Positions 36,421-52,504 of a stretch of DNA of 64,000 nt are shown in pieces. Position numbers and translations under genes: made by a program. The notes beneath the pieces were generated by a model. It had not been told where the DNA came from. It was given only the letters and a program-made list of their open reading frames with translations, and ran no database searches. Location: the NCBI RefSeq assembly GCF_057098645.1, contig NZ_CM169472.1, one strand, 5' to 3'. Each line of letters opens with the position of its first letter. The first letter of the stretch is position 1.

Positions 36421-37167
36421 TCAGAATTTGTAGGTGATCCCGGTAGAAATCAGGCCAGTCCAGGATTTATCCACCATCGGGCTGTCAGTAACTTCATCAG
36501 ACAGACGGGTGTAGCGCGCGGTACCGTAAACACTCCAGTCGCCGAGGAAGTTGTAGCTGGCGCTCAGCTCCAGGTAAGGGCTCCAGCTGTCGTTCGGGTT
36601 ATAGCCACGCAGACCGCTGCGAGCGGACTCTTTGCGCGATACGCCATAATAGTATTCGTTCTGGTTTTCGCTGTTCCACTGCACACCAATACCCGGAGTC
36701 ACGGTCAGGCCACCGTTGGTGTAACGATACAACCAGGCCATATCCCAGACGATGCCGTTGCTGTTATCCAGGGTATCGCCAGCCAGGGTGGTACGCAGGT
36801 AACCGTACTGGGTAAAGTGAGCATAAGACAGACCAGCCATCATGGTGCTCTTACGGTCATCCAGGTGACGCATTTGGTGATCGCCACTGTCTTTAGCTTT
36901 GAAGTAAAGCGGCGACCAGTAAGCGGTAATTGAAAGTTTATCCGTTGCGTCATTCCACAGGTAGTAACCACCACCTAAGCCACGGAACCAGAAGTTATCG
37001 CCTTCATAGTTGATTACCGGTACTGGGTAAACATCGGTATCGTAATCTTTATATGGGTGTTCAACGACACCTACGCCTGCGCCCAGGGAAAATTTACCTT
37101 CAGCGTGCGCTACGCCTGCAGACGTTGCGATAAGCACTCCAAGTGCCAGAAGTTTGAGTTTGGTCAC
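36421..37167 (-). CDS. mipA: MltA-interacting outer membrane protein (OmpV/MipA family)
   Basis: 248-aa ORF with signal peptide (MTKLKLLALGVLIATSAGVAHA) and terminal ...GITYKF beta-barrel signature. Confidence 0.9.
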   Translation of the reverse strand: MTKLKLLALGVLIATSAGVAHAEGKFSLGAGVGVVEHPYKDYDTDVYPVPVINYEGDNFWFRGLGGGYYLWNDATDKLSITAYWSPLYFKAKDSGDHQMRHLDDRKSTMMAGLSYAHFTQYGYLRTTLAGDTLDNSNGIVWDMAWLYRYTNGGLTVTPGIGVQWNSENQNEYYYGVSRKESARSGLRGYNPNDSWSPYLELSASYNFLGDWSVYGTARYTRLSDEVTDSPMVDKSWTGLISTGITYKF

Positions 37168-37602
37168 AATTAATCATTCCTTAAACAAATGTTTAGCGGG
37201 CGACAAAGTTTACCCGTCAATACATCGAAACCCAACCTTTTTACGTTTTCATTTTTTAAAGTAACTGTTTAATTTTCCTGACGCGGATGACACCGCGCTT
37301 ACAGCCAAATGAATTTAGCGTTACTGGCGAGCCTGGTCTTTACATTAATTATGCAAAATTTATGGATGAGTTGTTGATATGCCATTGAAATTAAGAAAGC
37401 CGTGTAGGCAAGTTTTCCATTTGCCATCTACGCTTAATTTTGAAGGTGTATCACCGGGCACGTTGTTCTCATCGTCGATAAAATGGCATGAGAGTTGCTG
37501 TGTTTTAGCAAGAGACGTCGTTCAGTTTACCTCTTCCGGGAGCCTCTACTATTCATATGAACGGCTCTTAACCTGTGCTAAAAAACGAAAGGACGGCATA
37601 CC

Positions 37603-39537
37603 ATGAATATATTCGATCACTATCGCCAGCGATATGAAGCTGCCAAGGACGAAGAGTTCACACTGCAGGAGTTTCTTACCACTTGTCGGCAAGATCGCAG
37701 TGCTTATGCCAACGCGGCTGAGCGGCTATTGATGGCTATCGGTGAGCCTGTCATGGTCGATACAGCCCAGGAACCCAGACTTTCTCGACTCTTTTCTAAC
37801 CGGGTCATTGCACGTTATCCGGCGTTTGAAGAGTTTTACGGCATGGAAGACGCGATTGAACAGATTGTCTCTTATCTGAAACACGCGGCTCAGGGGCTGG
37901 AAGAGAAGAAACAAATCCTGTATCTGCTGGGGCCTGTGGGTGGGGGTAAATCATCGCTTGCTGAGCGACTGAAATCATTAATGCAGCTCGTACCGATTTA
38001 TGTATTGAGCGCCAACGGTGAGCGTAGCCCGGTCAACGATCATCCGTTCTGTCTTTTCAATCCGCAGGAAGATGCGCAGATTCTGGAAAAAGAGTATGGC
38101 ATTCCTCGCCGTTATCTCGGCACCATCATGTCGCCGTGGGCGGCAAAACGTCTGCATGAATTTGGTGGCGATATTACTAAGTTCCGGGTAGTGAAGGTCT
38201 GGCCGTCCATTCTGCAACAAATTGCTATCGCCAAAACAGAGCCCGGTGATGAGAACAACCAGGACATCTCCGCGCTGGTAGGGAAAGTCGATATTCGTAA
38301 ACTCGAACACTACGCGCAGAATGACCCAGACGCCTATGGCTATTCCGGCGCACTGTGCCGCGCCAACCAGGGGATCATGGAATTCGTTGAGATGTTTAAA
38401 GCACCGATTAAAGTGCTGCATCCCTTGTTAACCGCCACTCAGGAAGGTAACTACAACGGGACGGAAGGTATCTCCGCCCTGCCGTTCAACGGGATTATTC
38501 TTGCCCACTCGAACGAGTCCGAATGGGTCACTTTCCGTAATAACAAAAACAACGAAGCCTTCCTCGATCGTGTTTACATCGTGAAGGTGCCGTATTGCTT
38601 GCGCATTTCCGAAGAGATCAAAATCTACGAGAAATTGCTTAATCACAGTGAATTGACTCACGCCCCATGCGCCCCTGGCACGCTCGAAACACTGTCACGT
38701 TTTTCCATTCTTTCGCGCCTGAAAGAGCCAGAAAACTCCAGCATTTATTCAAAGATGCGGGTTTATGATGGCGAAAGTCTGAAAGACACCGATCCCAAAG
38801 CCAAGTCGTATCAGGAATATCGTGACTACGCCGGTGTCGATGAAGGGATGAACGGTCTGTCGACGCGTTTTGCGTTTAAGATCCTCTCCCGCGTGTTCAA
38901 CTTCGATCATGTAGAAGTGGCGGCAAACCCGGTCCATCTGTTCTACGTCCTGGAACAGCAGATCGAGCGCGAGCAGTTCCCACAAGAGCAGGCAGAACGC
39001 TATCTGGAGTTCCTGAAAGGTTATCTGATCCCGAAATATGCCGAGTTTATTGGCAAAGAGATCCAGACGGCCTACCTTGAATCCTATTCCGAATATGGGC
39101 AAAACATTTTCGACCGTTATGTTACCTACGCGGATTTCTGGATTCAGGATCAGGAGTATCGCGATCCGGATACCGGGCAGCTGTTTGACCGCGAGTCTCT
39201 TAACGCCGAGCTGGAGAAAATCGAGAAACCGGCGGGGATCAGTAATCCAAAAGATTTCCGCAACGAGATTGTTAACTTCGTACTGCGCGCCAGAGCCAAT
39301 AACAGCGGACGCAATCCGAACTGGACCAGCTATGAAAAACTGCGCACGGTTATCGAGAAGAAAATGTTCTCCAATACCGAGGAGCTGTTGCCGGTTATCT
39401 CGTTTAACGCCAAAACGTCAACCGACGAGCAGAAGAAACACGACGACTTTGTCGACCGTATGATGGAAAAAGGCTACACCCGTAAACAGGTGCGTTTACT
39501 GTGCGAATGGTATTTGCGTGTACGTAAATCGTCTTAA
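37603..39537 (+). CDS. yeaG: PrkA-family serine protein kinase
   Basis: 644-aa ORF with P-loop GPVGGGKSS; conserved pairing with yeaH. Confidence 0.9.
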   Translation: MNIFDHYRQRYEAAKDEEFTLQEFLTTCRQDRSAYANAAERLLMAIGEPVMVDTAQEPRLSRLFSNRVIARYPAFEEFYGMEDAIEQIVSYLKHAAQGLEEKKQILYLLGPVGGGKSSLAERLKSLMQLVPIYVLSANGERSPVNDHPFCLFNPQEDAQILEKEYGIPRRYLGTIMSPWAAKRLHEFGGDITKFRVVKVWPSILQQIAIAKTEPGDENNQDISALVGKVDIRKLEHYAQNDPDAYGYSGALCRANQGIMEFVEMFKAPIKVLHPLLTATQEGNYNGTEGISALPFNGIILAHSNESEWVTFRNNKNNEAFLDRVYIVKVPYCLRISEEIKIYEKLLNHSELTHAPCAPGTLETLSRFSILSRLKEPENSSIYSKMRVYDGESLKDTDPKAKSYQEYRDYAGVDEGMNGLSTRFAFKILSRVFNFDHVEVAANPVHLFYVLEQQIEREQFPQEQAERYLEFLKGYLIPKYAEFIGKEIQTAYLESYSEYGQNIFDRYVTYADFWIQDQEYRDPDTGQLFDRESLNAELEKIEKPAGISNPKDFRNEIVNFVLRARANNSGRNPNWTSYEKLRTVIEKKMFSNTEELLPVISFNAKTSTDEQKKHDDFVDRMMEKGYTRKQVRLLCEWYLRVRKSS

Positions 39538-39544
39538 CAACCCT

Positions 39545-39569
39545 GGCCCGGTACACATGCTACCGGGCC
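39545..39569 (+). other. Perfect 9-bp stem-loop between yeaG and yeaH
   Basis: GGCCCGGTA-CACATGC-TACCGGGCC; no T-run follows, so probably an intra-operon stability or attenuation element rather than a full terminator. Confidence 0.35.
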
Positions 39570-39637
39570 TACAACGACAGCGAACCGTGGGCCAGAGAAA
39601 TGGCAACACAGGCGTAGCATACAGTTGGCAAATGTAG

Positions 39638-40933
<1,296 letters not shown>

Positions 40934-41079
40934 AACTATCAGCCGGGTCATTATCGCCTGGCTGATTTTTAGCTTACTGTAAATTATCTCATTTATTACA
41001 TACATTAGCTTACAATCGCTTTAAATATGACAGCATAACCTTTACATAATTTAGTTCCAGAAAACAATCATTCGGAAAA

Positions 41080-42555
41080 ATGATTCAGTCAACACGTATT
41101 TCCATGGGGTTATTCTTTAAATATTTTTTATCGTTAACGAAAATTGATCTTGGTCAAAACTATATATCTCTGCCATCAATAAAATCCAGCACTCACATTG
41201 TTCTCCTTTTTATGGTTTCTATGGGTACACAAAAATTAAAAGCTCAAAGCTTTTTTATTTTCAGTTTATTGCTGACGTTAATTTTATTTTGCATTACTAC
41301 CTTATATAACGAAAACACAAATGTAAAACTCATCCCACAGATGAATTACCTGATGGTTGTTGTGGCTTTGTTTTTCCTTAACGCCGTCATTTTTCTTTTC
41401 ATGTTAATGAAATATTTCACTAACAAACAAATTTTACCAACACTCATTTTAAGCCTTGCATTTTTAAGTGGCCTTATCTATTTAGTTGAAACCATTGTAA
41501 TTATCCATAAACCAATTAACGGCAGTACACTGATCCAGACAAAGTCGAATGATGTTTCTATTTTCTATATTTTCCGCCAACTCAGTTTTATTTGTTTAAC
41601 CTCGCTGGCGCTCTTTTGTTATGGCAAAGACAACATCCTGAACAATAATAAGAAAAAAACGGCAATCCTGTTGCTGGCGCTGATCCCTTTTTTATTTTTT
41701 CCCGTTCTGGCACACAATCTGAGCAGTTATAACGCTGACTATTCTTTGTATGTCGTCGATTACTGTCCTGACAACCATACTGCGACCTGGGGAATCAACT
41801 ATACAAAAATATTGGTTTGTCTGTGGGCATTTTTACTGTTCTTTATTATCATGCGTACACGATTAGCCAGCGAACTATGGCCATTAATAGCATTATTATG
41901 TCTGGCATCGCTATGCTGCAACTTACTTCTACTGACTCTGGATGAGTATAATTACACCATCTGGTACATCAGTCGCGGGATTGAAGTCTCCAGTAAACTG
42001 TTTGTTGTGTCTTTTCTGATTTATAACATTTTTCAGGAGCTGCAACTCTCCAGCAAACTGGCAGTTCATGATGTGCTGACCAATATTTATAATCGGCGCT
42101 ACTTTTTCAACAGCGTAGAGTCATTATTGTCGCGACCTGTTGTTAAGGACTTTTGTGTCATGTTGGTTGATATTAATCAGTTCAAACGCATCAATGCCCA
42201 ATGGGGACATCGTGTGGGTGATAAAGTGCTGGTATCAATTGTCGATATTATCCAGCAAAGCATCCGCCCCGATGATATTTTAGCGCGACTGGAGGGTGAG
42301 GTGTTTGGCTTGCTATTTACCGAACTCAATAGTGCCCAGGCAAAAATCATTGCGGAACGTATGCGTAAAAATGTCGAACTCCTGACCGGCTTTAGTAACA
42401 GATATGATGTTCCTGAACAAATGACCATCAGTATTGGCACTGTTTTTTCAACGGGTGACACGCGTAATATCTCGCTTGTCATGACGGAAGCAGATAAAGC
42501 CTTACGCGAAGCGAAAAGCGAGGGGGGCAACAAAGTGATTATTCATCATATTTAA
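41080..42555 (+). CDS. dgcI: Membrane-anchored GGDEF-domain protein with degenerate active site
   Basis: 491-aa ORF; AT-rich N-terminal multi-TM domain; GGDEF position reads EGEVF (codons 42292-42306). Confidence 0.8.
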   Translation: MIQSTRISMGLFFKYFLSLTKIDLGQNYISLPSIKSSTHIVLLFMVSMGTQKLKAQSFFIFSLLLTLILFCITTLYNENTNVKLIPQMNYLMVVVALFFLNAVIFLFMLMKYFTNKQILPTLILSLAFLSGLIYLVETIVIIHKPINGSTLIQTKSNDVSIFYIFRQLSFICLTSLALFCYGKDNILNNNKKKTAILLLALIPFLFFPVLAHNLSSYNADYSLYVVDYCPDNHTATWGINYTKILVCLWAFLLFFIIMRTRLASELWPLIALLCLASLCCNLLLLTLDEYNYTIWYISRGIEVSSKLFVVSFLIYNIFQELQLSSKLAVHDVLTNIYNRRYFFNSVESLLSRPVVKDFCVMLVDINQFKRINAQWGHRVGDKVLVSIVDIIQQSIRPDDILARLEGEVFGLLFTELNSAQAKIIAERMRKNVELLTGFSNRYDVPEQMTISIGTVFSTGDTRNISLVMTEADKALREAKSEGGNKVIIHHI

Positions 42556-42735
42556 GTGCAAAAATATTCAGAGCCATGCTTTTTGCGTGGCTTTTGCATA
42601 CAATTTATTACTATTACCCCTAAATTTCCCCTCCCCAGCGGCGCAGAGATGAGTATAATTAGCGCCCCTGTGCCAGGCCGCAATCGAACTTTATCTGGTT
42701 TTCTCGTTTCACTAACCGAAGGAGTGCCATTTATC

Positions 42736-44226
42736 ATGAAATTGCACCATAGAATGCTCCGGCATTTTATCGCCGCAAGTGTCATTGTGCTGACATCTTC
42801 CTTCCTTATTTTTGAACTTGTCGCCAGCGACAGAGCAATGAGTGCCTATCTGCGCTATATCGTGCAGAAAGCAGACTCCTCCTTTCTTTATGATAAGTAT
42901 CAGAATCAGAGTATTGCCGCGCATGTGATGCGCGCTCTCGCTGCTGAGCAGTCGGAAGTGTCGCCAGAACAGCGGCGCGCCATCTGCGAGGCTTTTGAGT
43001 CTGCCAATAATACCCATGGCTTAAACCTGACTGCCCATAAATACCCGGGCTTACGCGGCACACTACAAACCGCATCCACTGACTGCGACACAATTGTGGA
43101 AGCTGCAGCACTATTACCCGCTTTTGATCAGGCAGTGGAAGGCAACCGCCACCAGGATGATTACGGTTCAGGTCTTGGGATGGCCGAAGAGAAATTTCAC
43201 TATTATCTCGATCTCAATGACCGCTATGTCTATTTTTATGAGCCGGTTAATGTTGAATACTTTGCGATGAATAACTGGTCCTTCCTGCAGTCAGGAAGTA
43301 TTGGCATCGATCGCAAAGATATTGAAAAGGTATTTACCGGGCGTACCGTATTGTCGAGCATTTACCAGGATCAGCGTACTAAACAGAACGTGATGAGTTT
43401 GCTGACGCCGGTGTATGTTGCAGGGCAGCTAAAAGGGATTGTGCTGCTGGATATTAACAAAAACAATCTGCGGAATATCTTTTACACTCATGACCGCCCT
43501 CTCCTCTGGCGTTTTCTCAATGTCACGCTAACCGATACAGATTCGGGGCGCGACATTATCATCAACCAGAGCGAAGATAATCTGTTCCAGTATGTCAGTT
43601 ACGTCCATGACTTACCGGGCGGCATTCGTGTCTCGTTATCCATTGATATTCTTTACTTTATCACGTCTTCGTGGAAAAGCGTTCTGTTCTGGATTTTGAC
43701 GGCGTTAATTTTGCTGAATATGGTGCGGATGCACTTCCGCTTATACCAAAATGTGTCGCGAGAAAATATTAGTGATGCGATGACTGGACTGTATAATCGC
43801 AAAATTTTAACCCCTGAACTGGAGCAGCGGTTGCAGAAACTGGTGCAATCCGGTTCTTCGGTGATGTTTATTGCAATTGACATGGACAAGTTAAAGCTAA
43901 TAAATGACACCCTCGGTCATCAGGAAGGGGATTTAGCGATTACGTTGTTAGCTCAGGCGATTAAACAGTCGATTCGTAAAAGTGATTATGCCATCCGACT
44001 CGGTGGCGATGAATTCTGCATCATTCTTGTCGATTCGACGCCGCAAATTGCATCACAACTGCCTGAACGTATCGAAAAACGTCTGCAACATATCGCGCCG
44101 CAGAAAGAGATCGGCTTCTCTTCCGGTATTTACGCGATGAAAGAAAACGATACGTTACATGATGCGTATAAAGCTTCCGATGAGCGTTTATATGTCAATA
44201 AGCAGAACAAAAACAGCCGTTCATGA
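42736..44226 (+). CDS. dgcJ: Membrane-anchored diguanylate cyclase
   Basis: 496 aa from ATG 42736 (MKLHHRMLRHF...); intact GGDEF at codons 44002-44016. Confidence 0.8.
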   Translation: MKLHHRMLRHFIAASVIVLTSSFLIFELVASDRAMSAYLRYIVQKADSSFLYDKYQNQSIAAHVMRALAAEQSEVSPEQRRAICEAFESANNTHGLNLTAHKYPGLRGTLQTASTDCDTIVEAAALLPAFDQAVEGNRHQDDYGSGLGMAEEKFHYYLDLNDRYVYFYEPVNVEYFAMNNWSFLQSGSIGIDRKDIEKVFTGRTVLSSIYQDQRTKQNVMSLLTPVYVAGQLKGIVLLDINKNNLRNIFYTHDRPLLWRFLNVTLTDTDSGRDIIINQSEDNLFQYVSYVHDLPGGIRVSLSIDILYFITSSWKSVLFWILTALILLNMVRMHFRLYQNVSRENISDAMTGLYNRKILTPELEQRLQKLVQSGSSVMFIAIDMDKLKLINDTLGHQEGDLAITLLAQAIKQSIRKSDYAIRLGGDEFCIILVDSTPQIASQLPERIEKRLQHIAPQKEIGFSSGIYAMKENDTLHDAYKASDERLYVNKQNKNSRS

Positions 44227-44268
44227 TAACCTTCTGTGGTTGTTTGCTTGTAATCTCAGGAGCATGAA

Positions 44269-44772
44269 ATGACTGAAATGGCTAAAGGAAGCGTGACGCA
44301 TCAGCGGTTAATCGCTTTATTATCACAAGAAGGTGCAGACTTCCGCGTCGTTACCCATGAAGCGGTAGGTAAATGTGAAGCGGTGTCAGAAATTCGTGGC
44401 ACCGCTTTAGGCCAGGGGGCTAAGGCACTGGTATGTAAAGTCAAAGGCAATGGCGTAAATCAACATGTTCTGGCGATCCTCGCTGCGGATCAACAGGCCG
44501 ATCTGAGCCAACTCGCCAGCCATATAGGCGGATTACGCGCTTCGTTGGCCAGCCCGGCGGAAGTCGATGAACTCACAGGCTGTGTCTTCGGCGCGATCCC
44601 CCCTTTCAGCTTCCATCCAAAACTCAAACTGGTTGCCGACCCCCTACTCTTCGAACGATTTGATGAAATCGCCTTCAATGCAGGCATGCTGGATAAATCC
44701 GTTATTTTGAAAACCGCGGATTATTTGCGCATTGCGCAACCAGAACTGATCAATTTCCGCCGCACTGCGTAA
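44269..44772 (+). CDS. yeaK: YbaK/ProX-type aminoacyl-tRNA deacylase family protein
   Basis: 167-aa ORF, family-level similarity. Confidence 0.8.
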   Translation: MTEMAKGSVTHQRLIALLSQEGADFRVVTHEAVGKCEAVSEIRGTALGQGAKALVCKVKGNGVNQHVLAILAADQQADLSQLASHIGGLRASLASPAEVDELTGCVFGAIPPFSFHPKLKLVADPLLFERFDEIAFNAGMLDKSVILKTADYLRIAQPELINFRRTA

Positions 44773-44877
44773 CTAGCCTGTCCGTTCAATAAGCAGAACG
44801 GACAAAACCAGCACAACAGCAATGGCAAAAAACGATGACGTGATAATCAGTGTCTCGACGAACATTTGATCGTTCAT
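44773..44877 (-). CDS. yoaI: Tiny inner-membrane protein (34 aa)
   Basis: Minus-strand ATG at 44875-44877 to stop 44773-44775 translates [34 protein letters not shown], a single TM helix; below the 60-aa cutoff of the ORF track. Confidence 0.5.
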
Positions 44878-45046
44878 AGCATGCCCCCGGGAGATAGCTG
44901 TTTTCACGTTATTGTTAGCGTGCACAAATGGCAGTTTGATGACAGTTCGCCTGATTTTTTATGCAAAAAACGTAAAGATTTTCTACTTCCTTCCTGCAGC
45001 AAGCGTAAAGTAAGCAGGCTTATTATTTTTTGGCAAGGAAACCACG

Positions 45047-45493
45047 ATGTTTGATGTCACTTTGCTGATCCTGCTCGGGTTAGCTGCGCTGGGCTTTATC
45101 AGTCATAACACCACTGTCGCCGTTTCAATTCTGGTGTTGATCATTGTCCGCGTCACACCGTTAAGCACCTTTTTCCCGTGGATTGAAAAACAGGGGCTAA
45201 GTATCGGGATAATCATTCTGACGATTGGCGTTATGGCCCCCATCGCCAGCGGGACGCTACCGCCCTCAACCTTGATTCACTCGTTTCTGAACTGGAAATC
45301 GCTGGTGGCAATTGCAGTAGGCGTTATTGTCTCCTGGCTGGGTGGGCGCGGCGTGACGTTAATGGGCAGCCAGCCGCAACTGGTTGCTGGGCTGCTGGTG
45401 GGCACTGTTTTAGGCGTAGCGCTGTTTCGCGGCGTACCGGTTGGCCCGCTTATTGCCGCGGGTCTGGTTTCGCTGATTGTGGGGAAACAGTAG
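45047..45493 (+). CDS. yeaL: UPF0756 family inner membrane protein
   Basis: 148-aa hydrophobic ORF. Confidence 0.8.
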
Positions 45494-46271
45494 TTAATCC
45501 CGCAATATATCGGCCTGGCGTTTGCCCCAGGCCTTTCTTAAACATAGTAATAAAGGCCGTTGTTGAATCATACCCCAGCGTATGAGCAACTTTCTGTACA
45601 GTATCGCCTTTCACTAATCCCTGAAGCGCCATAATCAGCTGTAACTGCTGACGCCACTGGCGAAAACTCAACCCCGTCTCTTTTACTATCAGTCGGGCAA
45701 GATTGCGTTCACTCATCGCAAAAAAGCCAGCCCATTGCCCCAATGACCCCCACTCGACGGGCTCTTTCGCCATCATCTCCACCATCGTGCGGATTTTAGG
45801 ATGAGAAGAAACGGGCAAGTGCAGCTGTTGTTGTGGCTGCTGAGGGAGTTCATCAAACAGGACCTGAATTAATCTGCGGGTCATCGGCTCAGCACGCTGA
45901 GTCGTAGTCCTGTTTGCCAGGGTTAAAATCAATTCCCGGCATAAGGGCGATATTTTCAATGTGCAACATGTTGTCGGCATTGTCACTGCGCTGGGTTCGA
46001 TAAACAGAAAACAGAGTTCAGCGTTAGCTGTCACTTGATTGCTATGCTTCACCCCGCCCGGTATCCAAACCGCATATTGTGGCGGCACCATCCACAAAGC
46101 ATTTTCCACCGTACAGGTAATTGCACCATGTAATGCCAGTATCAGCTGTCCTTTGCGGTGCTGATGTACAGGACTGGTTAACTCATCCGTTCCGGCGTGA
46201 ATACAAAATGCGACCGCGGCTTCATGGTGTCGGTCGGGTTCATAGCCATTGAGATTCAACCTGTGCATCAT
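45450..46271 (-). CDS. nimR: AraC-family transcriptional regulator
   Basis: 273-aa ORF (yeaM) with C-terminal AraC HTH; divergent from MFS gene yeaN; 3' end overlaps yeaL by 44 nt. Confidence 0.8.
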
Positions 46272-46367
46272 TTTGTCCGAATATAGCGATAATTTGTCAT
46301 TTTAGCTTGATTCAACATAACAATAAAAACGGTAAGGTACAGCCTCGTTTGTAACAATGAGAAGCAT

Positions 46368-47549
46368 ATGACCTGTTCAACTTCATTAAGCGGCAAAAAC
46401 AGGATTGTCCTTATCGCTGGCATTCTGATGATTGCCACTACATTACGCGTCACCTTCACCGGCGCTGCACCGTTACTCGATACGATTCGTTCCGCTTACT
46501 CGCTGACGACTGCGCAAATCGGCTTATTGACCACCCTGCCATTATTGGCCTTTGCGCTAATCTCACCTTTGGCCGCCCCGGTGGCGCGACGTTTTGGTAT
46601 GGAACGTAGCCTGTTTGCCGCGTTACTTTTGATCTGTGCTGGTATCGCAATTCGCTCTCTCCCTTCGCCTTACTTATTATTTGGCGGTACAGCGGTCATT
46701 GGCGGTGGGATTGCATTAGGCAATGTCTTACTGCCAGGATTAATTAAACGCGATTTCCCTCATTCCGTCGCCAGACTTACCGGCGCATATTCCCTGACAA
46801 TGGGAGCTGCGGCGGCACTGGGATCGGCTATGGTAGTGCCGCTGGCTTTGAACGGTTTTGGCTGGCAAGGCGCGTTGCTCATGCTGATGTGTTTTCCTCT
46901 GCTGGCTCTTTTTTTATGGCTGCCACAGTGGCGAAGCCAACAACATGCAAATTTGAGTACTTCACGCGCCTTACATACTCGGGGTATCTGGCGTTCGCCG
47001 CTTGCCTGGCAGGTAACATTGTTTCTTGGGATCAACTCACTGGTCTATTACGTGATTATTGGCTGGCTTCCGGCGATCCTCATCAGTCACGGCTATAGCG
47101 AAGCACAGGCGGGTTCACTGCATGGTTTGCTGCAACTAGCCACAGCAGCTCCCGGTTTGCTGATCCCGCTTTTCTTACATCATGTGAAAGATCAGCGTGG
47201 TATTGCAGCGTTCGTTGCCTTGATGTGCGCAGTGGGCGCGGTTGGGCTCTGCTTTATGCCAGCGCACGCGATCACCTGGACTCTGCTTTTCGGTTTTGGT
47301 TCCGGCGCAACAATGATACTGGGGTTGACGTTCATTGGTCTTCGGGCAAGTTCTGCGCATCAGGCGGCGGCACTCTCGGGGATGGCACAATCCGTCGGGT
47401 ATTTGCTGGCAGCCTGTGGGCCGCCGCTGATGGGTAAAATACACGATGCTAACGGTAACTGGTCTGTACCACTGATGGGTGTTGCCATGCTTTCACTACT
47501 GATGGCGATTTTCGGACTTTGCGCCGGAAGAGACAAAGAAATTCGCTAA
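46368..47549 (+). CDS. nimT: MFS efflux transporter
   Basis: 393-aa 12-TM ORF (yeaN), divergent from the AraC regulator. Confidence 0.8.
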   Translation: MTCSTSLSGKNRIVLIAGILMIATTLRVTFTGAAPLLDTIRSAYSLTTAQIGLLTTLPLLAFALISPLAAPVARRFGMERSLFAALLLICAGIAIRSLPSPYLLFGGTAVIGGGIALGNVLLPGLIKRDFPHSVARLTGAYSLTMGAAAALGSAMVVPLALNGFGWQGALLMLMCFPLLALFLWLPQWRSQQHANLSTSRALHTRGIWRSPLAWQVTLFLGINSLVYYVIIGWLPAILISHGYSEAQAGSLHGLLQLATAAPGLLIPLFLHHVKDQRGIAAFVALMCAVGAVGLCFMPAHAITWTLLFGFGSGATMILGLTFIGLRASSAHQAAALSGMAQSVGYLLAACGPPLMGKIHDANGNWSVPLMGVAMLSLLMAIFGLCAGRDKEIR

Positions 47550-47603
47550 TATCCGGTGCTATAGTGACGTGACAAATCATGCGTGAAAGGGAGAACAAAC
47601 ACG

Positions 47604-47951
47604 ATGAATATTCAGTGCAAACGCGTTTATGATCCGGCAGAACAGAGCGATGGTTATCGCATACTGGTCGACCGCCTCTGGCCGCGCGGTATCAAAAAAA
47701 CCGATTTAGCCCTTGATGAGTGGGATAAAGAAATCACGCCGTCAACGGAACTGCGCAAAGCCTTTCACGGCGAAGTCGTCGATTTTGCAACCTTTCGCGA
47801 GCAATATCTTGCAGAACTGGCGCAACACGAGCAAGAAGGAAAGCGGCTGGCGGACATCGCCAAAAAACAGCCGCTGACCCTGCTCTACTCAGCAAAAAAC
47901 ACCACGCAGAACCATGCGCTGGTGCTGGCCGACTGGCTACGTAGCTTGTGA
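47604..47951 (+). CDS. yeaO: DUF488 family protein
   Basis: 115 aa from internal ATG (MNIQCKRVYDPAEQSDGYRI...). Confidence 0.75.
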   Translation: MNIQCKRVYDPAEQSDGYRILVDRLWPRGIKKTDLALDEWDKEITPSTELRKAFHGEVVDFATFREQYLAELAQHEQEGKRLADIAKKQPLTLLYSAKNTTQNHALVLADWLRSL

Positions 47952-47972
47952 TTTTAGTACAGCATCCGGCGG

Positions 47973-48227
47973 TTATTTTTCACCAGCCGGATGGTCCCGT
48001 CGCCACAATGCCCATTCATCAATCGTTTCACCGCCCGGTAATTTGCAATTGTTGCTGACCCCTTGCGCTGTCTGCACTGGAATGAGCGTCCCGCCCTTCT
48101 GCTGGCAATAGACCGACGCCGGATTTGCCATACCAATCTGCGGCGGTTTAGGTGCATCTGGCTGAGAAGGGGTTGAACAACCAGCCAGGACCAGCAAGCA
48201 AGGCAGAACAAAACTGATAATTTTCAT
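47973..48227 (-). CDS. yoaF: Putative lipoprotein (DUF333)
   Basis: 84-aa ORF with lipobox LAGC. Confidence 0.75.
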   Translation of the reverse strand: MKIISFVLPCLLVLAGCSTPSQPDAPKPPQIGMANPASVYCQQKGGTLIPVQTAQGVSNNCKLPGGETIDEWALWRRDHPAGEK

Positions 48228-48409
48228 TTATTGATCTCACATATTTATCCAAGCTTAGAGTATCGCGGTATCGTTTTGTTTTGCAGCACTATTTTTATTA
48301 CATTCACTCAAAACATATTACGTCTTGTTTCATCTTTGTTGATGATGTTTTATCATGCCTGCAAAGATTAAATAATCAGCACTTACCCGCCGTATCCTGG
48401 AGTTGTTCC

Positions 48410-49435
48410 GTGTCAGATCAGATTATCGCCCGCGTCTCGCAATCCCTTGCCAAAGAACAGTCACTGGAAAGTCTGGTCCGACAGCTTCTGGAGATGCTGG
48501 AAATGGTCACTGATATGGAATCAACCTACCTGACCAAAGTGGATGTCGAAGCGCGCCTGCAGCATATTATGTTTGCCCGTAACAGCCAGAAAATGCACAT
48601 CCCGGAGAATTTTACCGTCTCGTGGGATTACTCGTTATGCAAACGCGCCATTGATGAAAACTGCTTTTTCAGCGATGAAGTCCCTGACCGTTGGGGCGAC
48701 TGTATTGCGGCACGCAATCTTGGCATCACCACATTTCTGAGCACGCCAATTCACTTACCGGATGGATCATTCTATGGCACGCTTTGCGCCGCCAGCAGTG
48801 AGAAGCGCCAGTGGAGTGAACGCGCGGAACAGGTTTTACAGTTATTCGCCGGACTGATTGCACAATATATTCAAAAAGAGGCACTGGTTGAACAGCTGCG
48901 CGAAGCCAATGCTGCGCTGATTGCGCAATCGTATACCGACTCGTTAACCGGGCTACCGAATCGGCGGGCGATTTTTGAAAATCTGACGACGCTGTTTTCC
49001 CTCGCCCGGCATCTTAACCATAAGATAATGATCGCGTTTATCGATCTGGATAACTTCAAATTAATCAATGATCGTTTTGGTCATAATAGTGGCGATCTGT
49101 TTCTCATTCAGGTTGGCGAGCGCCTTAATACGCTCCAGCAAAATGGCGAAGTTATTGGTCGTCTCGGTGGTGATGAGTTTTTGGTTGTTTCACTAAACAA
49201 CGAGAATGCGGATATTTCGTCGCTGCGAGAACGTATTCAACAGCAAATACGTGGAGAATATCACTTAGGTGATGTTGATTTGTATTATCCCGGTGCCAGT
49301 CTTGGCATAGTAGAAGTCGATCCTGAAACGACCGATGCAGACAGTGCCCTGCATGCTGCCGATATCGCGATGTATCAGGAGAAAAAACACAAACAGAAAA
49401 CACCTTTTGTCGCGCATCCAGCGCTACATTCCTGA
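48410..49435 (+). CDS. dgcP: Diguanylate cyclase with N-terminal GAF-like sensor domain
   Basis: 341 aa from GTG 48410 (after GGAG); intact GGDEF at 49166-49180. Confidence 0.8.
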   Translation: MSDQIIARVSQSLAKEQSLESLVRQLLEMLEMVTDMESTYLTKVDVEARLQHIMFARNSQKMHIPENFTVSWDYSLCKRAIDENCFFSDEVPDRWGDCIAARNLGITTFLSTPIHLPDGSFYGTLCAASSEKRQWSERAEQVLQLFAGLIAQYIQKEALVEQLREANAALIAQSYTDSLTGLPNRRAIFENLTTLFSLARHLNHKIMIAFIDLDNFKLINDRFGHNSGDLFLIQVGERLNTLQQNGEVIGRLGGDEFLVVSLNNENADISSLRERIQQQIRGEYHLGDVDLYYPGASLGIVEVDPETTDADSALHAADIAMYQEKKHKQKTPFVAHPALHS

Positions 49436-49467
49436 GGCGTATTCACATCCTTTTGATTGGTGATAAC

Positions 49468-49566
49468 ATGCGAATCGGTATTATTTTTCCGGTTGTAATC
49501 TTCATTACAGCGGTCGTATTTTTAGCATGGTTTTTTATTGGCGGCTATGCTGCCCCGGGAGCATAA
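49468..49566 (+). CDS. yoaK: Tiny membrane protein (32 aa)
   Basis: ATG 49468 to TAA 49564-49566: MRIGIIFPVVIFITAVVFLAWFFIGGYAAPGA; single TM; below ORF-track cutoff. Confidence 0.45.
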   Translation: MRIGIIFPVVIFITAVVFLAWFFIGGYAAPGA

Positions 49567-49568
49567 AG

Positions 49569-49643
49569 ATGAAAAAAACAACGATTATTATGATGGGTGT
49601 GGCGATTATTGTCGTACTCGGCACTGAGCTGGGATGGTGGTAA
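49569..49643 (+). CDS. yoaJ: Tiny membrane protein (24 aa)
   Basis: ATG 49569 to TAA 49641-49643: MKKTTIIMMGVAIIVVLGTELGWW; starts 2 nt after yoaK. Confidence 0.45.
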   Translation: MKKTTIIMMGVAIIVVLGTELGWW

Positions 49644-49651
49644 CGTCACCT

Positions 49652-49688
49652 CTAAAAAATAGCAAAGGCTGCCTGTGTGCAGCCTTTG
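49652..49688. terminator. Bidirectional hairpin terminator between yoaJ (+) and yeaQ (-)
   Basis: CAAAGGCTGC-CTGTGTG-CAGCCTTTG stem-loop with an A-run on the plus strand (T-run for the minus-strand yeaQ transcript). Confidence 0.5.
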
Positions 49689-49701
49689 TGCAATTTAAGC
49701 G

Positions 49702-49950
49702 TTAACTTTTAATCTTCCTGTAGATAAATAGCACGACAATCGCACCAATAACGGCAACCACGAAGCTGCCAAAATTGAAGCCATCAACTTTACCAAAGCC
49801 AAACAGCGTGCTGATCCATCCGCCGACTACGGCACCGACTATCCCCAGCAGGATAGTCATAAAGAATCCACCACCATCTTTACCTGGCATGATCCACTTC
49901 GCCAGAATACCGGCAATAAGCCCAAAAATAATCCATGACAGAATGCCCAT
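49702..49950 (-). CDS. yeaQ: GlsB/YeaQ/YmgE family small membrane protein
   Basis: 82-aa ORF, Gly-rich TM helices (MGILSWIIFGLIAGILAKWIMPG...). Confidence 0.8.
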   Translation of the reverse strand: MGILSWIIFGLIAGILAKWIMPGKDGGGFFMTILLGIVGAVVGGWISTLFGFGKVDGFNFGSFVVAVIGAIVVLFIYRKIKS

Positions 49951-50097
49951 TGTTTCCTCACTTATCTGTTTTGCATTAGCGGGTTAGTCGCTGATAAAAA
50001 GCATAGCACAACATCGGGAGGGCAAGATTTGTGACGAGCATCACGGAGGATTTTTTTGCGATGGCGCAGAAATTGCGCCATCAACGATCAGTGATAA

Positions 50098-50280
50098 TTA
50101 CCAACCACAAACATCATGTTCGTTTTCCGTGTCATAAGAACGTACGGTATTCACCAGATCTTTTATCACTTCAGCCGCCTCTTCTGGCACCAGCAAAGTC
50201 ATCGGCGTCTCTGTTTCATAATCGACAGAAACGCCATTGCTGTTATTGGTGACGGTCACGGTATACGTTGCTTTGCTCAT
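50098..50280 (-). CDS. yoaG: DUF1869 small protein
   Basis: 60-aa ORF immediately downstream of yeaR on the same strand. Confidence 0.7.
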   Translation of the reverse strand: MSKATYTVTVTNNSNGVSVDYETETPMTLLVPEEAAEVIKDLVNTVRSYDTENEHDVCGW

Positions 50281-50283
50281 GAT

Positions 50284-50643
50284 TCATTTCCCGTTATGAA
50301 TGACTTTCCGTTGTTGCGCACCTTCCATCAGGACTTCAGGAGCCACGAAGAAGTCAATATTGAAATAAGTATCGTCAGTCATGGCTTCAATGTTGTGCCA
50401 CTTTTCTGGAGGGAACACCGCGAACTGCCCCGCTTCGATAAGGATCACCTGATCAGGCTCTGCACTGTGTTCATCAGCGTAGCCGAGATATTTGACCGCC
50501 CCATGCATAACGGAAAGGCGTGGGTAAACCCCCGGGCGCGTTCCTTTATCAAGATGACGTTCGAATATTCCGGCAGGCGCAGTTTGTTTATTCCAGAAAG
50601 GCGTTGAGCGCGTATGAATATAATTCTGTGGGATTTGCAGCAT
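50284..50643 (-). CDS. yeaR: DUF1971 family protein
   Basis: 119-aa ORF; first gene of the yeaR-yoaG pair. Confidence 0.8.
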   Translation of the reverse strand: MLQIPQNYIHTRSTPFWNKQTAPAGIFERHLDKGTRPGVYPRLSVMHGAVKYLGYADEHSAEPDQVILIEAGQFAVFPPEKWHNIEAMTDDTYFNIDFFVAPEVLMEGAQQRKVIHNGK

Positions 50644-50815
50644 CCTTTTCCCTCCTTCGGTGAATGCGCTGAAAACGGTTTATTCCAGCCGTTTCAGGGT
50701 ACGCCTGATAATTTGCATTTTAAATACCATTTATTGGTTACTTTTTAGCACCATATCAGAGAAGAATCAGGGAGGATTATAGATGGGAAGCCCGCGACAA
50801 CGCGGGCTGAAAGCA

Positions 50816-51523
<708 letters not shown>

Positions 51524-51580
51524 TTAGAAAGGAGAAAATCAGGTTTTAACCTGATATCAACCCGATAATTGAATCATTAA

Positions 51581-52504
51581 TCAGGCATGCTCCAGTGAAA
51601 AATTCGGGTAGTGCTCGGCAAAATACTGGCGTAAAAATTCTACCGTTATCCGCACTTTCGCTGACGTCGCCAGCCTTGAAACATAAACGGCCCAGACGTT
51701 CGCTGGCTGGTAATATTCCGGTAGCACTTGCACTAAATGACCACTGGCAATGTTTTCGCTAACATCCCACCAGGAACGCAAAGCAATCCCCTGCCCATCG
51801 AGACACCACTGATGGACAATTTCTCCATGATTAGACGACAGTGGGCCGGTGACTTTAATCGCATGGTGGCCTTCTTTATTGCGTAATTGCCAGACACCAA
51901 AAGGATGATCGCGCTCTTTAATGACCAGGCACGGCAATGCAGAAAGATCGGTTAAATGTTTCGGCGCGCCATGTTGCGCAATAAATTCCGGCGACGCGCA
52001 GAGAATGCGGTAATTGGTCGCCAGTTTGCGGGCGATTAAATTAGGGGCGATGTCATCGCCAATGCGAATATCGAGATCGACACCTTCATTGACCAAATCG
52101 ACCAGCCGGTCTTCCACATCAAAACGTAATTCCAGTTGCGGATACGCCTTCGCCAGCGCTGATAACGCCGGAGCCACCACCTGTCGTCCAAAACCAAAGC
52201 TGCTGATAATACGCAGCATCCCCTGTGGCACCTGACGCACGTCAGAAAGTTCGTCCATCATCTGACCGACATCCTGCAAAATCCGCTGCGCCCATTCATA
52301 AATCCGCTCTCCTTCTTCGGTAATGGTGACGCGGCGGGTGGTGCGGTGTAACAACACCACGTTTAGCGTTTGCTCCAGCAAGGCGATGCGCTTGCTGACG
52401 AACGCCGGTGAAACGCCCAGTTCTTCCGCCACGGCGGCAAAACCAGCCCGGCGAGCCACCAGCATAAAGACGCGCAAATCATTCAGCAGCGGTAAATTAT
52501 TCAT
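51581..52504 (-). CDS. dmlR: LysR-family transcriptional regulator
   Basis: 307 aa from internal ATG (MNNLPLLNDLRVFMLVARRAGFAAVAEELGVSPAFVS...); divergent from dmlA. Confidence 0.85.
   Translation of the reverse strand: MNNLPLLNDLRVFMLVARRAGFAAVAEELGVSPAFVSKRIALLEQTLNVVLLHRTTRRVTITEEGERIYEWAQRILQDVGQMMDELSDVRQVPQGMLRIISSFGFGRQVVAPALSALAKAYPQLELRFDVEDRLVDLVNEGVDLDIRIGDDIAPNLIARKLATNYRILCASPEFIAQHGAPKHLTDLSALPCLVIKERDHPFGVWQLRNKEGHHAIKVTGPLSSNHGEIVHQWCLDGQGIALRSWWDVSENIASGHLVQVLPEYYQPANVWAVYVSRLATSAKVRITVEFLRQYFAEHYPNFSLEHA

Follow-up and report, generated by a model that had tools for sequence, protein, structure and literature searches.

The degenerate GGDEF gene cdgI in the cdgI-dgcJ-dgcP region of Escherichia coli: probably a non-catalytic c-di-GMP-binding regulator and a paralog of dgcT

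We analyzed a window of 64,000 nucleotides from contig NZ_CM169472.1 of RefSeq assembly GCF_057098645.1, in which three genes with GGDEF domains, cdgI, dgcJ and dgcP, lie on the plus strand between positions 41080 and 49435. The first of these, cdgI (yeaI, b1785; 41080–42555, 491 residues in the RefSeq annotation), in all likelihood encodes an inner-membrane MASE4-GGDEF protein in which the active site (A-site) has decayed and the RxxD inhibitory site (I-site) has been kept, a paralog of DgcT that serves as an H-NS-silenced, non-catalytic regulator binding cyclic di-GMP (c-di-GMP). The state of the motifs, the domains, the paralogy, the synteny, the single origin of the degenerate clade, the purifying selection and the base composition were observed here; the binding of c-di-GMP, the occupancy by H-NS, the lack of expression, the repression by CsrA and the control by SrsR are taken from published papers. 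The region is a core E. coli segment, yeaG-yeaH-cdgI-dgcJ-yeaK...dgcP, and the cluster, with its inactive, c-di-GMP-binding and H-NS-bound cdgI, is ordinary and already present in the literature and in the K-12 annotation. The name dgcI, under which the gene had appeared in the original prediction, was wrong: dgcI is yliF (b0834), which adjoins pdeI at another locus.

That prediction, made from the letters of the window, held that cdgI reads EGEVF where a cyclase should have GG(D/E)EF and that the other two genes are intact. All three motif positions were exact, with EGEVF at 42292–42306 in CdgI and an intact GGDEF both in DgcJ (44002–44016) and in DgcP (49166–49180). The signature stretches at these positions are IRPDDILARLEGEVF, IRKSDYAIRLGGDEF and QQNGEVIGRLGGDEF, and the surrounding translations are IRPDDILARLEGEVFGLLFT (CdgI, 42262–42321), IRKSDYAIRLGGDEFCIILV (DgcJ, 43972–44031) and QQNGEVIGRLGGDEFLVVSL (DgcP, 49136–49195). 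Each protein covers about 160 of the 161 positions of the Pfam GGDEF profile, PF00990, with expectation values (E) of 9e-45 for CdgI, 1.1e-39 for DgcJ and 5.6e-41 for DgcP, and the GGDEF domain is preceded by MASE4 in CdgI, by GAPES1 in DgcJ and by GAF in DgcP. An EGEVF lying outside the signature position had been named beforehand as the outcome that would overturn the claim. In the alignments, EGEVF fell in the signature column itself, opposite GGDEF of DgcJ and DgcP, GGEEF of DgcT and GGEEF of the solved cyclases 6zxm and 3ign.

In CdgI, the integral-membrane MASE4 sensor domain (PF17158, E = 1.8e-48) occupies residues 88–319 (41341–42036) and has the highest AT content within the coding sequence, while the degenerate GGDEF domain occupies residues 328–485 (42061–42534). 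The first glycine of the signature is replaced by glutamate and the fourth-position glutamate by valine, with further changes of DID to DIN and of ND to NA. Both the first glycine and the fourth-position glutamate are needed in characterized GGDEF cyclases. CdgI is thus without the intact GG(D/E)EF A-site by which we recognized an active diguanylate cyclase. The I-site RPDD (42265–42276), invariant throughout the degenerate clade described below, stands five residues before the A-site (RPDD-ILARL-EGEVF), the same spacing as in DgcJ (RKSD-YAIRL-GGDEF; RKSD at 43975–43986). DgcP has no RxxD I-site and reads QQNG at that position. The residue table of Spurbeck et al. 2012 (PMC3484386) likewise gives KNAHDREGEVF for YeaI and KNDHDRGGDEF for DgcJ and DgcP. 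With their intact motifs, DgcJ and DgcP are most likely ordinary diguanylate cyclases; the activity of the Shigella DgcP ortholog depends on the GG motif and is abolished by a GG to AA change (PMC11327459).

A degenerate A-site next to an intact I-site bears out the expectation that the EGEVF gene is unlikely to encode a cyclase and probably encodes a receptor or regulator, and published work agrees. Sarenko et al. 2017 (PMC5635695) described CdgI in the same terms and found that its purified GGDEF domain binds c-di-GMP (their Fig. S4B). In two-hybrid assays, this domain made strong heteromeric contacts with other GGDEF domains, and the authors suggested that CdgI may inhibit other cyclases in a manner modulated by c-di-GMP. 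The protein remained below detection throughout growth, its overexpression was toxic, and cdgI was repressed by CsrA (PMC5635695). Both Sarenko et al. and Cimdins-Ahne et al. 2023 (PMC10459773) treat CdgI/YeaI as inactive. Following the published proposal, CdgI would act through c-di-GMP-modulated GGDEF–GGDEF contacts with other cyclases, presumably by forming heterodimers. Degenerate GGDEF receptors that have lost the A-site and bind c-di-GMP through a retained RxxD are known in PopA of Caulobacter and PelD of P. aeruginosa. Their N-terminal domains are unrelated to that of CdgI and their outputs differ.

The comparison of the motif across strains that had been called for showed little variation within the species. 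The 90 nucleotides around the motif were found in 5413 of 5426 complete E. coli genomes and were identical in 3321 of them; the three one-mismatch variants that were sampled all carried a synonymous C>T change at 42270. More distant relatives were another matter. A protein search returned closer relatives of CdgI at 77%, 64%, 62%, 61% and 58% identity. The 77% relative (P0011) has EGEVF and the 64% relative (P0015) EGKRF, while three Citrobacter sequences, P0017, P0021 (Citrobacter sp. Awk 4 by its NCBI name) and P0022 (Citrobacter sp. NCU1), have GGEEF together with a canonical DIDHFKRIND. Alleles within Escherichia read EGEVF, DGEVF, EGDVF, EGNVF and, in one case, EGEEF. The RxxD motif was unchanged in all of these relatives, and such drift of the A-site beside a fixed RxxD is unlike the behavior of a constrained catalytic site. 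These motifs may form a graded series that starts with GGEEF in the Citrobacter clade, passes through metagenomic lineages with EGKRF and EGEVF and ends in the set of Escherichia alleles, with an invariant I-site and a ratio of nonsynonymous to synonymous substitution rates (dN/dS) of about 0.1.

In a neighbor-joining tree, the degenerate sequences formed one clade (≈90% bootstrap) that was sister to the GGEEF genes found at the same chromosomal position (100%), with DgcT outside. When the window was compared with four other Escherichia species, pairwise dN/dS of cdgI was 0.08–0.10, alike in the MASE4 and GGDEF halves, at synonymous divergence (dS) of 0.35–0.87. The corresponding ratios were 0.10 for the GGEEF pair, 0.03–0.04 for dgcJ and 0.00–0.01 for yeaH. 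This pattern fits a single loss of catalysis followed by purifying selection, with the constraint taken off the A-site and kept on the I-site. A single loss of the catalytic motif would have occurred on the branch that led to Escherichia.

The original prediction had also taken cdgI and dgcJ for an old tandem duplication in which one copy was turned into a receptor. In favor of this, cdgI and dgcJ are neighbors with the same orientation and comparable lengths, and each product has a C-terminal GGDEF domain with an RxxD I-site. However, the N-terminal two-thirds of the proteins are unrelated folds, MASE4 in one and GAPES1 in the other. We compared CdgI with 12 E. coli cyclases, consisting of DgcJ and DgcP from the window and ten other genes fetched from K-12. 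Along its entire length, CdgI could be aligned with DgcT (38% identity over 445 residues, E = 5e-100), whereas only the GGDEF domain matched DgcJ (28% over 153 residues, E = 2e-13). In the GGDEF-domain matrix, CdgI and DgcT were 45% identical, but CdgI and DgcJ only 23%, among the lowest values for the 12 paralogs and below those for most of the others. DgcJ lay outside the five best paralogs of CdgI, and neither the shared architecture nor the nearest-paralog relationship of tandem duplicates was found. Moreover, dgcJ adjoins yeaH in many genera that have no MASE4 gene there. A duplication of dgcJ is therefore scarcely credible, and cdgI is, as judged from these alignments, a paralog of dgcT.

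The placement of CdgI with DgcT agrees with Sarenko et al. 2017 (PMC5635695), who noted that the N-terminal domain of CdgI is common to DgcT and DgcX, and with Cimdins-Ahne et al. 2023 (PMC10459773), who grouped DgcX, YcdT and the inactive YeaI in a MASE4-GGDEF family. CdgI has the features of this subfamily (DgcT, DgcX, CdgI), namely PF17158 followed by GGDEF and full-length homology to DgcT. DgcT (YcdT, b1025), encoded next to pgaABCD, resembles CdgI in its MASE4-GGDEF architecture, its AT-rich profile and its RPDD I-site, but differs in having kept GGEEF and DIDHFKKVND, in its locus, and in being regarded as an active cyclase.

The surroundings of cdgI were compared in a scan with YeaH, using one genome per species, which gave 80 loci. 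A MASE4 gene followed directly after yeaH in five of these, all of Escherichia type. Eleven loci of Citrobacter type (ten titled Citrobacter and one, L025, titled Raoultella) had the order yeaH-dgcJ-yeaK. In Enterobacter and some other genera, yeaK came directly after yeaH, and in many of the remaining loci yeaK was further downstream or outside the fetched flank. The Citrobacter-type loci lacking the gene had either a yeaH-dgcJ spacer of 140–165 bp or unrelated open reading frames (ORFs); gaps of 1.0–2.1 kb in L018, L020, L021, L024, L025 and L027 contained minus-strand ORFs of 256, 136 and 204 residues. MASE4 remnants were sought in the yeaH-dgcJ gaps of Citrobacter without the gene, and there was no match with E below 0.4. 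With short spacers or unrelated ORFs and no MASE4 remnant, the yeaH-dgcJ junction is a variable site, and accessory genes seem to have been inserted there repeatedly.

The MASE4-GGDEF genes of other lineages occupy the same position wherever it was traced. On the contigs of P0011, P0017 and P0021, the order was yeaH-[MASE4-GGDEF]-dgcJ-yeaK-yeaL, and in all orthologs the gene began 290–299 nucleotides after yeaH. The flanking genes of P0017 and P0021 showed Citrobacter-level identity to E. coli (94–95% for YeaH, 63–64% for DgcJ). The Citrobacter genes (P0017, P0021 and P0022) are thus like cdgI in sequence (58–62% identity of the products) and, for P0017 and P0021, in slot, spacer and low guanine-cytosine (GC) content, but unlike it in their intact catalytic signatures. 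At this variable junction, a MASE4-GGDEF gene was probably already in place by the time Escherichia diverged. A metagenome contig from ENA (k141_331532, L092), with products 98% (YeaH), 68% (DgcJ) and 77% (CdgI) identical to those of E. coli, already has EGEVF and lacks nimR between yeaL and nimT.

The 5' half of cdgI and the DNA upstream of it had been singled out as AT-rich, and a GC scan placed the minimum of the whole window there. The lowest 300-bp value was 0.283 at 40991, about 4 standard deviations below the mean (mean 0.499, standard deviation 0.051), and the lowest 600-bp and 1000-bp windows also fell at the 5' region of cdgI. The GC content was 0.351 for 40940–42000, 0.32 for 40934–41079 and 0.30 for the 600 bp from 40971. 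Codons 1–327 (41080–42060), which contain MASE4, had a GC content of 0.355, with 0.42 at third codon positions (GC3), and the GGDEF part had 0.437. Neighboring genes had 0.46–0.55. The two halves of dgcT had 0.351 and 0.441, and the same-position genes in Citrobacter 0.36–0.39.

The composition could reflect nothing more than the amino acid make-up of a multi-pass membrane domain, in which case it would say nothing about H-NS or foreign origin. The most AT-rich coding part is indeed the MASE4 domain, the GC content is depressed at first and second codon positions (0.35 and 0.29), as an abundance of Ile, Leu, Phe, Asn and Lys in the protein would lead one to expect, and the paralog dgcT has the same profile. 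But GC3 is low too, compared to 0.50–0.64 in neighboring genes, and the non-coding leader has a GC content of 0.29–0.39 in all orthologs. Two genes for membrane proteins in the same window, nimT and yeaL, have 0.53 and 0.55, and H-NS occupancy has been measured in K-12 (PMC3661553). We consider an explanation by amino acid composition unlikely.

The occupancy data are those of Panyukov and Ozoline 2013 (PMC3661553, Table 1), who listed a 304-bp "promoter island" (1868534_304) inside yeaI that was bound by H-NS in all three compiled K-12 chromatin immunoprecipitation data sets and was classed as foreign by GIST, Nakamura 2004 and Lawrence & Ochman 1998. By our own coordinate conversion, this island corresponds to about 41200–41510, at the GC minimum. 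The island was not reproduced as such by a simple sigma-70 scan of 40600–42800, which gave 6 promoter-like sites where 7.3 were expected, and thus no excess. The statement that this DNA is typical of H-NS-silenced or horizontally acquired sequence holds for the association with H-NS and the predicted foreign character, but there is no mark of recent acquisition. Low GC is common to dgcT and to the same-position genes of Citrobacter, so that the AT-richness is durable and the gene is old at its site. GC content well below the background and a patchy distribution at a conserved locus were both found, the acquisition being an old one. We found no literature data on derepression of cdgI in an hns mutant.

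H-NS on the AT-rich leader and 5' coding region, together with CsrA, would keep cdgI almost silent. SrsR (YgfI) binds the spacer between yeaH and cdgI and activates cdgI (PMC9181523), and its genomic SELEX (gSELEX) peak, at K-12 position 1,868,366, corresponds by our conversion to a point near 41040. SrsR can switch cdgI on in stationary phase.

Several points weigh against the picture of CdgI as an H-NS-silenced c-di-GMP receptor. The inactivity of the protein and its binding of c-di-GMP rest on a supplementary figure in one paper; CdgI is undetectable under laboratory conditions, and a physiological role has only been proposed. The H-NS nucleation motif TCGATAAATT, searched with up to two mismatches, was not enriched, with 110 matches in the window and one (41176) in the AT-rich region. 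Gain of the gene by insertion and ancestral presence with repeated loss both stand, Salmonella being outside the 80 loci. Spurbeck et al. 2012 (PMC3484386), citing earlier K-12 work, placed YeaI among the proteins with "verified diguanylate cyclase activity", and in their study the cyclase WspR made good the biofilm defect of a CFT073 yeaI mutant in salt-free LB, but not in M9-glycerol. The phenotypes themselves conflict, since deletion of yeaI reportedly raises early biofilm in K-12 and lowers biofilm in CFT073 (the latter from PMC3484386). Finally, the one EGEEF allele in Escherichia (P0005) has the catalytic glutamate restored. Mutation of EGEVF is also said, in work by Sanchez-Torres from 2011, to have abolished the effect of YeaI on motility.

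The reported activity, the rescue by WspR, the EGEEF allele and the reported effect of the EGEVF mutation on motility would be accounted for if CdgI still worked as a diguanylate cyclase, perhaps a weak or conditional one, despite EGEVF. This is quite improbable. The first glycine and the fourth-position glutamate are both replaced, and the A-site drifts freely among orthologs (EGEVF, DGEVF, EGDVF, EGNVF, EGKRF) while RxxD is fixed; the failure of WspR in M9-glycerol and the two papers that call the protein inactive point the same way. A full-text literature search for "EGEVF" returned unrelated papers only. It is more improbable still that cdgI is a functionless remnant, repressed by H-NS and decaying into a pseudogene. 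The absence of detectable protein, the toxicity of overexpression (PMC5635695) and the degenerate motif might suggest as much, as might the IS1 insertions or cdgI deletions of some strains and the absence of cdgI from S. flexneri. However, the dN/dS of both domains equals that of the GGEEF clade, and all full-length Escherichia orthologs that were obtained have an unbroken frame of 444 codons (L014 runs off the end of its contig). Furthermore, over 99% of complete E. coli genomes carry cdgI, the motif is unchanged in the sampled variants and the I-site is invariant. A conserved, non-catalytic receptor remains the reading that we prefer.

The annotated start of cdgI appears to lie too far upstream. 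The first methionine of DgcT and of the GGEEF orthologs aligned with Met48 of the annotated CdgI, at 41221. This methionine was kept in all six Escherichia-type sequences, in four of which (L011 and L013–L015) the upstream frame was closed by stop codons or without an ATG, and the RefSeq proteins of other Escherichia have 447 residues. Between the window and two species with an open upstream frame, substitutions at the first, second and third codon positions numbered 7/10/5 and 6/10/4 in the 47 upstream codons, compared to 33/20/108 and 31/22/117 in the 444-codon core. Without a third-position excess, the upstream 141 nucleotides evolve like non-coding DNA. Judging from these comparisons, translation probably begins at 41212 or 41221. 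The frame from the conserved methionine (MGTQKLKAQ..., 444 residues, 41221–42555) is the probable real one, with the ATG at 41212 as the alternative. No Shine-Dalgarno sequence was evident at either ATG.

On this assignment, an AT-rich leader extends on the plus strand from yeaH to the conserved start (40934–41220), including the 47 annotated codons (41080–41220) and a weak promoter-like site at 41041–41068. A consensus scan placed a strong terminator-like hairpin at its upstream end (40938–40966, plus strand), beginning five bases 3' of the yeaH stop codon (40933) and consisting of an 11-pair stem with six G-C pairs followed by the T-run TTTTAGCTTA. With this hairpin after yeaH, the yeaGH unit probably ends there, and cdgI would need its own promoter. 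An Rfam search of 37000–52000 at gathering thresholds found no RNA family. Two proposals follow that may both be absent from the literature, and together we give them about an even chance: that the 491-residue annotation starts 132–141 nucleotides too early, the conserved protein having 444–447 residues and the untranslated AT-rich leader of about 280–290 nucleotides serving as a platform for H-NS, SrsR and CsrA; and that a natural, graded transition from enzyme to receptor can be followed in the genes at the yeaH/dgcJ junction.

The segment as a whole is widely conserved. A 3.4-kb core (40900–44300) was 100% identical to E. coli O145 RM9872, and at least 80% of this query was found in 5389 of 5426 complete E. 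coli genomes, with 98–100% identity in the records listed. Two matches in this set were to records typed as plasmids, which may be mis-typed replicons or chromosomal fragments. The RefSeq gene order of the matching stretch is yeaG, yeaH, cdgI, dgcJ, yeaK, yoaI, yeaL, nimR, nimT, yeaO, yoaF, dgcP, yoaK, yoaJ. From mipA to yoaJ (13 kb, 36695–49695), the window was colinear with K-12 MG1655, with 146 mismatches; cdgI was 98.6% identical in DNA to the K-12 gene, and the two proteins differ at six residues and share RPDD and EGEVF. Set against the RM9872 locus (L001) without gaps, the window showed 1431 mismatches, which left the region of the three genes unaffected. When 13–19 GGDEF genes were placed randomly on the chromosome in a simulation, the chance of three gene starts falling within 7.33 kb was 0.002–0.007.

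Of the two cyclase genes, dgcJ (yeaJ, b1786) extends over 42736–44226 and encodes a GAPES1 periplasmic sensor domain (42826–43647) and a GGDEF domain (43771–44217). Its mechanical ORF opens with a GTG at 42556, directly 3' of the cdgI stop codon, and the annotated start is the ATG at 42736. The gene dgcP (yeaP, b1794) extends over 48410–49435 and encodes a GAF domain (48458–48874) and a GGDEF domain (48932–49399); here, the mechanical ORF reaches upstream to a TTG at 48281, and the annotated start is the GTG at 48410. Beyond the cluster, leuE (50816–51454, minus strand) has an intact frame of 212 residues that opens with GTG and is preceded by a GAGG ribosome-binding site, while the RM9872 record annotates a frameshift. 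The idea of leuE as a pseudogene was dropped, the frame being unbroken in the window.

The cdgI-dgcJ locus appears prone to IS1 insertions. E. coli ET791 carries an IS1 in cdgI directly after the EGEVFGLL codons (L098, 2562–3330), and one other genome has an IS1 inside the 3.4-kb region. A K-12 derivative has been described with IS1 in dgcJ and a cdgI-dgcJ' deletion (PMC8117528), and S. flexneri has no cdgI, a truncated dgcJ and an active dgcP (PMC11327459).

For the most part, these results rediscover what is textbook knowledge about c-di-GMP signaling in E. coli and add little beyond bookkeeping. Of use are the corrected name, cdgI in place of dgcI, and the replacement of the duplication by paralogy with dgcT. 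New but minor are the GGEEF genes at the same position, the drift of the A-site in a gene that is under purifying selection and has a fixed I-site, and the probably mis-annotated start. Constructs and topology models based on the 491-residue CdgI may carry 47 spurious residues, and the start deserves re-examination. The GGEEF genes at the same position offer a ready comparison for what the loss of catalysis changed, and the graded series, if true, could be used for a stepwise reconstruction of how a cyclase became a c-di-GMP sensor.

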